NCBI RefSeq assembly: GCF_056712565.1
Contig: NZ_CM160072.1
DNA length: 64,000 nucleotides
Reading direction: 5' to 3' (one strand)
Under the pieces are notes generated by a model, which was given only the letters and a program-made list of their open reading frames with translations, was not told the DNA's origin and did no database searches. The translations under genes and the position numbers were made by a program. Below are positions 4,959 to 5,939 of this stretch, one piece after another (the stretch's first letter is position 1; each line of letters opens with the position of its first letter).

Positions 4959-5939
4959 TTACTTACTGATAAGACGGTCAAGGGCGACAGCCGCGATAAT
5001 TAATCCGCCCATCACCACCAGTTGGTAATAGGTTTGTACCTGCAAAATATTCAGACCGTTGTTGATGGTGCCGATGATCAACCCGCCAATCACCACAGAG
5101 AAAATGCGCCCCTTGCCGCCGAAGAAACTGGTGCCGCCAATGATGGCGCTGGCAATGGCATAGGTTTCAAAACCCATACCGGCAAGCGGTTCTGCGGCAC
5201 CGAGTCGTGCAGTTGAGACGACGCCTGCCAGACCTGCACAAACACCGGAGATGATAAACACCACCAGGATGTGGAATTTCACGTCAATCCCGGAATAGAA
5301 CGCCGAGTTTTTGTTGCCGCCCAGTGCGTAGATGTTGCGCCCGAGCCGCATACGCGTTGTCAGAAACCAAAGGATGAGCGCGACAATTAGCGAGAAGATA
5401 ACGGGGACAGGTATCCCAATTACGCTGGCGGCAAAGAAGTTCACGAAGTCAAATGAGAAGCCGTATACCGAGTTGGCATCGGAGATCACCAGCGTGATCC
5501 CACGGAAAATAGCGTTGGTGCCAAGGGTGATAATGAACGGGTGTAGTCCCGTCCAGTTGACCAGGCAGCCGTTGATCGCCCCCAGTGCGCCGCCAACCAG
5601 TACACCGCCAATTAGCGCCGCGAGAAACGGATCAATACCTGCCAACATCAGTTTAGCGGTCACCATACCGGAAAGCGCCAGAATCGCGCCAACCTAAAGG
5701 TCGATACCGGCGACCAGGATAGCGAAGAATTCCCCCATGCCGATCAGTACCGTCACGGAGCTTTGCACAAAAATCTGGGTAATATTATTGGTGGTCAGAA
5801 AATATTCTGACGACAGCGAACCAAAAATGGCGACGATGATCGCCAGGATAAAAAAGGTGCCGTATTTATCCCAGAACAGCGCAAAGTTGAACGGTTTCTT
5901 CTCGCTCGCTTCGCTTTTTACTCGTGTGGTAAAGCCCAT
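4959..5939 (-). pseudogene. alsC: D-allose ABC transporter permease AlsC, interrupted by an in-frame amber codon
   Basis: ORFs 5694..5939 and 4959..5666 are in the same frame and together span 327 codons; a single TAG (plus strand cta at 5694-5696) separates ...LVAGIDL from VGAILA... Confidence 0.8.

Follow-up and report, generated by a model that had tools for sequence, protein, structure and literature searches.

An amber codon at position 82 of the D-allose permease gene alsC is probably a clonally inherited nonsense mutation of ST95-complex Escherichia coli

The window analysed here, a stretch of 64,000 nucleotides of contig NZ_CM160072.1 (NCBI RefSeq assembly GCF_056712565.1), carries the als locus, whose genes lie on the minus strand beside the divergently transcribed rpiB gene. 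[quoted passage not shown] 1997 on this point. Ribose uptake of low affinity is ascribed to AlsC as well in PMC12589546, a study that made use of an alsC::kan strain of the Keio collection. The features of the locus, in window coordinates, are the following:

3340..4269, minus strand: alsK (allose kinase), intact, with one derived missense change, R256P
4253..4948, minus strand: alsE (D-allulose-6-phosphate 3-epimerase), intact, with A79V at window 4713
4959..5939, minus strand: alsC pseudogene (D-allose ABC transporter permease), 981 nt with one internal stop, assigned through its RefSeq-flagged twins, NF007252 and Pfam
4959..5693, minus strand: untranslated C-terminal three quarters of alsC, containing model positions 92-326
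5694..5696, minus strand: premature amber TAG at codon 82, ancestrally the Ser codon TCG, with C>A at window 5695
5697..5939, minus strand: translated N-terminal remnant of 81 aa from the ORF list, model positions 1-81, comprising the cytoplasmic N-terminus and about the first two hydrophobic segments
5918..7450, minus strand: alsA (ATPase subunit), intact ORF with one derived missense change, R366C
7577..8511, minus strand: alsB pseudogene (periplasmic D-allose-binding protein), with a 1-bp deletion at window 8379, codon 45
8570..9460, minus strand: alsR repressor gene, intact, encoding a protein identical to that of K-12
9819..10268, plus strand: rpiB (allose-6-phosphate / ribose-5-phosphate isomerase B), intact, divergently transcribed

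The reading frames of alsA, alsE, alsK, alsR and rpiB are all still open, which would fit either a recent mutation or continued use of these genes. The start of alsE lies 10 nt past the alsC stop and is provided with its own AAGGA motif.

In the ORF list alsC is represented by two minus-strand open reading frames. The first (5694..5939) encodes 81 amino acids, ends in ...FFAILVAGIDL and is closed by the TAG; the second (4959..5666) encodes 235 amino acids and begins at Met92, whose ATG lies at window 5664-5666. The list and a reading of the strand over window 4800-6100 place both ORFs in one frame, which is open right after the TAG (VGAILALSG, then Met92), so that 4959-5939 is a single 981-nt frame of 327 codons with one TAG. 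This is the arrangement that the initial annotation of this DNA had described, and it stands as described. An ungapped base-by-base alignment with alsC of K-12 (b4086), which is also 981 nt long, contains 23 nucleotide differences (97.7% identity) and no indels, and the two products differ at four amino-acid positions, the stop included. Codon 82 is TAG in the window and TCG (Ser82) in both K-12 and CFT073; the initial annotation had named TCG for K-12, correctly. The window alsC is a real interrupted gene, and a chance pair of ORFs is ruled out.

The assignment of the gene rests on family models and on its position. Against the NCBIfam equivalog NF007252, 'D-allose ABC transporter permease', the 81-aa piece aligns with model positions 1-81 (E=4.6e-41) and the 235-aa piece with positions 92-326 (E=1.9e-143); when Ser82 is restored, AlsC scores 651.7 bits over positions 1-326, above the curated cut-off of 396 bits. 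The locus equals that of K-12, where AlsC is the permease of the AlsBAC importer: the order alsR-alsB-alsA-alsC-alsE-alsK with divergent rpiB is the same, and the order and coordinates of the alsRBACEK operon agree both with K-12 and with the identical DNA annotated in RefSeq. The earlier identification of the gene as alsC, encoding a permease, is borne out by the NF007252 match and the K-12 alignment. The uninterrupted frame of a complete permease is missing here, TAG standing at codon 82, and the window gene is alsC by descent, with the predicted status of a pseudogene rather than a functional member of its family.

The Pfam domain BPD_transp_2 (PF02653) spans residues 52-318 of the repaired protein, so the TAG at codon 82 falls within the membrane domain. 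A simple hydropathy scan gives peaks at about residues 21-48 and 58-89, and roughly the first two hydrophobic segments precede the stop; no relative on which residue 82 could be placed was detectable by sequence in the PDB. The sugar ABC permeases of the RbsC / AraH type belong to the same PF02653 family, which the repaired AlsC matches end to end, and the RbsC model matches it at 2e-69, but they are paralogues of AlsC with other substrates. Compared with K-12 AlsC, the window allele is predicted to yield just 81 of 326 residues; the confirmed single amber at codon 82 supports the truncation after about 81 residues predicted in the initial annotation.

Of 5,426 complete E. coli genomes, 3,382 have the alsC region and about 38% gave no match to it. 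The TAG allele was counted with a 41-mer that has this codon at its centre and for which megablast seeding is impossible when the central base differs; it matched 124 of the 5,426 genomes, in every case at 100%, and the TCG version of the same 41-mer matched 1,034 genomes of this set, CFT073 and NC101 among them. The sum of the two counts (1,158) is consistent with the 1,155 genomes that have at least 99% identity over the 1,101-bp alsC region, and at least 30 complete E. coli chromosomes have these 1,101 bp without a single difference. The 124 carriers of TAG come from many laboratories and many hosts, and include UTI89, S88, APEC O1, IHE3034, UM146, NU14, IMT5155 and the type strain ATCC 11775. 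In all three carrier records examined, RefSeq describes alsC as 'pseudo, internal stop' (UTI89_RS22645 in UTI89, EAS44_RS22840 in ATCC 11775 and AN206_RS23755 in SF-468), and these pseudogenes are 100% identical to the window alsC; the allele is thus already recorded as a pseudogene in these records. Since APEC O1, IMT5155, UTI89 and IHE3034 are documented in ST complex 95 of phylogroup B2 (PMC4232414), we therefore call TAG an ST95-complex allele, a label taken from named strains typed in the literature and not from MLST of all 124 carriers. The allele appears to mark the whole clone and not one genome.

This distribution bears on two alternative explanations of the interruption. That TAG is a sequencing or assembly error, the true genome having a sense codon at 5694-5696, is conceivable as it is for any single base, but 124 complete genomes deposited separately, UTI89, APEC O1 and S88 included, have the identical 41-mer, and the 1,101 bp around the site are invariant in the chromosomes mentioned above. 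Because the same TAG is found in separate assemblies of such varied laboratories and hosts, sequencing error is excluded for practical purposes and was rejected. A similarly negligible probability is given to two genuinely separate small genes in place of one broken gene: the mechanical ORF list does contain two ORFs, but they are in the same frame, one codon apart, and colinear with a single equivalog model of 326 positions, and one intact 981-nt CDS is found in K-12, CFT073 and more than 1,000 other genomes. It was rejected on the colinearity with the single model and on the intact TCG gene of the 1,034 genomes. The initial annotation had left room both for a sense codon in the reads and for two genes in related genomes; neither applies, TAG being identical in 124 assemblies and alsC a single intact gene in CFT073 and K-12.

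In order to polarise the changes, every difference in the operon was compared with K-12 (phylogroup A) and CFT073 (B2, not ST95). TAG is derived, because both outgroups have TCG, and the C>A change at codon 82 is the sole derived substitution in alsC on the lineage of the window. Features of a nonsense pseudogene found here are a sense codon in the orthologues of the same locus, a stop that is the derived state, and a stop that is real in 124 assemblies. The alsC sequence has decayed no further, which would be expected of a clonal lineage that is young. The operon as a whole has 5 synonymous and 3 missense derived changes on the window lineage, in addition to 1 nonsense change and 1 frameshift; this tally hints at relaxed constraint, with counts too few to be conclusive. 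The three derived missense changes are AlsA R366C, AlsK R256P and AlsE A79V. The first two are radical replacements common to the window and UTI89, in intact neighbours of the pseudogene, and they may be an early indication that constraint has relaxed across the operon. AlsE A79V is absent in UTI89, ATCC 11775 and CFT073 and, the alsB deletion aside, is the sole difference from ATCC 11775 over 10.1 kb; the alsE region is identical in SF-468, which has the alsB frameshift too.

A second lesion affects the same transporter. Alignment with UTI89 and K-12 reveals the 1-bp deletion in alsB, which changes AAAAAAGGC to AAAAAAGC at Gly45; the frameshifted gene encodes 44 native residues followed by an out-of-frame tail and a stop, and is split into two frames in the ORF list. 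Seventeen of the 5,426 complete genomes match a 41-mer that bridges the deletion; their hosts are human, chicken, duck, swine and dog, and the lesion is real because it is common to these 17 genomes. Thirteen of them are identical to the window over 2,851 bases covering both lesions, and at least 15 of the 17 also have the alsC TAG. One such genome is SF-468, 100% identical to window 2360-14400, where RefSeq annotates alsB as 'frameshifted' and alsC as 'internal stop'; in UTI89 and ATCC 11775, in contrast to the window, alsB is still intact and AlsE has Ala79. As the 17 genomes are nested within a group of 124, the alsC nonsense mutation would have come first and the alsB frameshift later, in a sub-clone. 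Amber decoding does not affect a frameshift, and the transporter of the window is thus beyond rescue by an amber suppressor.

The initial annotation had envisaged an amber suppressor tRNA, and the suppressor alleles were probed in the 5,426 genomes with 41-mers centred on the mutated anticodon base, built on K-12 glnV/X, glnU/W, tyrT/V, tyrU, serU, leuX and trpT as templates. The alleles covered, all single-step anticodon mutants, were supE, supB, supF (tyrT/V and tyrU), supC, supD, supP and trpT-amber, and the K-12 supE44 strains in the set provided an internal positive control. Matches were obtained in 159 genomes, and the 60 matches listed are all K-12-size strains of laboratory type (C600, DH5alpha, DH1, J53 and others); when the supE segment is left out, only two genomes match, OV2, recorded as a laboratory strain, and DSM 498. 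Among the matches listed, no classical single-step amber or ochre suppressor allele was seen beyond K-12-size strains of laboratory type. The glnX-glnV-glnW-glnU cluster of UTI89 consists of four Gln tRNA genes with wild-type CUG and UUG anticodons. Moreover, no supE with B2-type flanks was found with a 420-nt UTI89 probe carrying supE in both glnV and glnX, whose best match is 99.5%, that is two mismatches; because of these two mismatches, glnV and glnX are wild type in every genome with B2-type flanks, S88, IMT5155, MS7163, NU14 and ExPEC XM among them. No tRNA gene lies within the 64-kb window. The allele search, the Gln tRNAs of UTI89 and the B2-flank probe thus leave the suppressor route to full-length AlsC unsupported.

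An alsC kept functional by decoding of the amber, whether a suppressor tRNA or natural readthrough of high efficiency is responsible, would fit with the undamaged remainder of the frame, in which TAG is the only derived change, and with the intact state of the other als genes in UTI89 and ATCC 11775. We consider it very unlikely in view of the tRNA results and of the distribution of the stop, which is limited to one near-clonal lineage: conservation of the stop across diverged lineages, expected of programmed readthrough or recoding, is not seen, the alsC sequences of the carriers being identical and all other lineages examined having Ser at codon 82. Some natural readthrough of the TAG at a low level may occur; basal values for UAG in wild-type cells of E. 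coli lie around 0.01-1% and are unlikely to sustain transport. The later loss of alsB in a sub-lineage, by a frameshift that amber decoding could not repair, also argues against it. Slightly less probable still is a split permease, in which two pieces, the N-terminal 81 aa and a C-terminal product re-initiated at Met92 (window 5666), would form a working channel. Some membrane transporters tolerate splitting, an in-frame ATG does lie ten codons past the stop, and the 235-aa ORF corresponds to model positions 92-326. However, no Shine-Dalgarno motif is found in the 20 nt ahead of Met92 (CGATTCTGGCGCTTTCCGGT), and the product would lack residues 82-91, part of a hydrophobic segment in the Pfam domain; on these two grounds re-initiation at Met92 was judged unlikely. 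The arrangement is, in addition, confined to one clone, and the later alsB frameshift argues against upkeep of the transporter.

We therefore hold with high confidence that alsC is a lineage-fixed nonsense pseudogene, produced by a single C>A transversion that turned Ser82 (TCG) into TAG in an ancestor of the ST95 complex (B2) and spread by clonal descent. The whole is best read as an ordinary case of stepwise decay in which the high-affinity D-allose ABC importer was lost, since the single premature stop is inherited by the clone and is already a pseudogene in the public annotation. Release factor 1 (RF1) would end translation at codon 82 after 81 residues, leaving a fragment that holds about the first two hydrophobic segments and lacks some three quarters of the membrane domain, and that would form no channel. 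AlsA and AlsB would then be left without a channel and the AlsB-AlsA-AlsC importer would remain unassembled, with predicted loss of high-affinity D-allose uptake and of the minor, low-affinity entry of ribose by way of Als. A polar effect of the roughly 735 nt of alsC mRNA left untranslated may in addition depress the expression of alsE and alsK, despite the AAGGA motif of alsE. In the sub-lineage the later alsB frameshift would be the expected next step of decay for a transporter that no longer works. An alternative to which we give little credit is that loss of the importer was selected and not neutral in the extraintestinal pathogens of ST95, an end to the uptake of D-allose, ribose or other compounds being of help in the host; the alsB frameshift and the missense changes of AlsA, AlsK and AlsE would then be follow-on events.

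The als locus is dispensable in E. coli. In EAEC 042 the als operon is absent and D-allose is not used in Biolog plates (PMC2808357), and in PCN033 the alsBACEK regulon is absent (PMC4578781). The outcome expected for the window is the same as in these two strains, namely no use of D-allose, which is documented by Biolog for 042 and inferred for PCN033; unlike them, the window has an operon that is physically present and inactivated by point lesions. Inactivation by point lesions, as in this clone, is a further way of losing the importer. Nothing specific on alsC pseudogenes, on this TAG allele or on growth of ST95 on D-allose was found in the literature searched. To the RefSeq record the present analysis adds that the stop appears to mark a whole clone, that the idea of a suppressor is not supported, and that the genome of the window has lost alsB as well.

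Important causes of neonatal meningitis, urinary infection and avian colibacillosis belong to the ST95 complex, and the prediction that follows from the allele is that E. coli of this complex, the type strain ATCC 11775 included, lack the high-affinity D-allose importer. If so, any metabolic model that includes alsC among the genes present would be in error for these strains. The nested lesions, an alsC stop in 124 genomes and an alsB frameshift in 17, offer a tidy small case of stepwise operon decay and provide two single-site markers, the alsC TAG for the clone, where it may be a clean single-nucleotide marker of the ST95 complex, and the alsB deletion for the sub-clone. The importance of these results is modest, and they open no new biological question.

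Two further features of the window lie outside the als locus. The first is the absence of melB, the melibiose permease gene: the 1,665 bp that in K-12 separate the melA stop from the 3' end of yjdF are replaced at window 39124-39143 by 20 bp. The annotated yjdF of SF-468 exceeds that of K-12 by 21 nt (651 vs 630 nt). The deletion junction is found in 1,115 of the 5,426 genomes, and since this number is near that of genomes with B2-type alsC, the loss of melB looks like an old phylogroup-wide deletion. At window 56929-64000, beside cadC, lies an island with remnant genes of a CP4-type prophage (DUF932, antirestriction, CbtA/CbeA toxin-antitoxin). It has 85-92% identity to its counterpart in SF-468, vs 99.96% in the flanking core, and is 100% identical in ATCC 11775, HS13-1 and others; being divergent in the former and identical in the latter, the island is variable within the clone.
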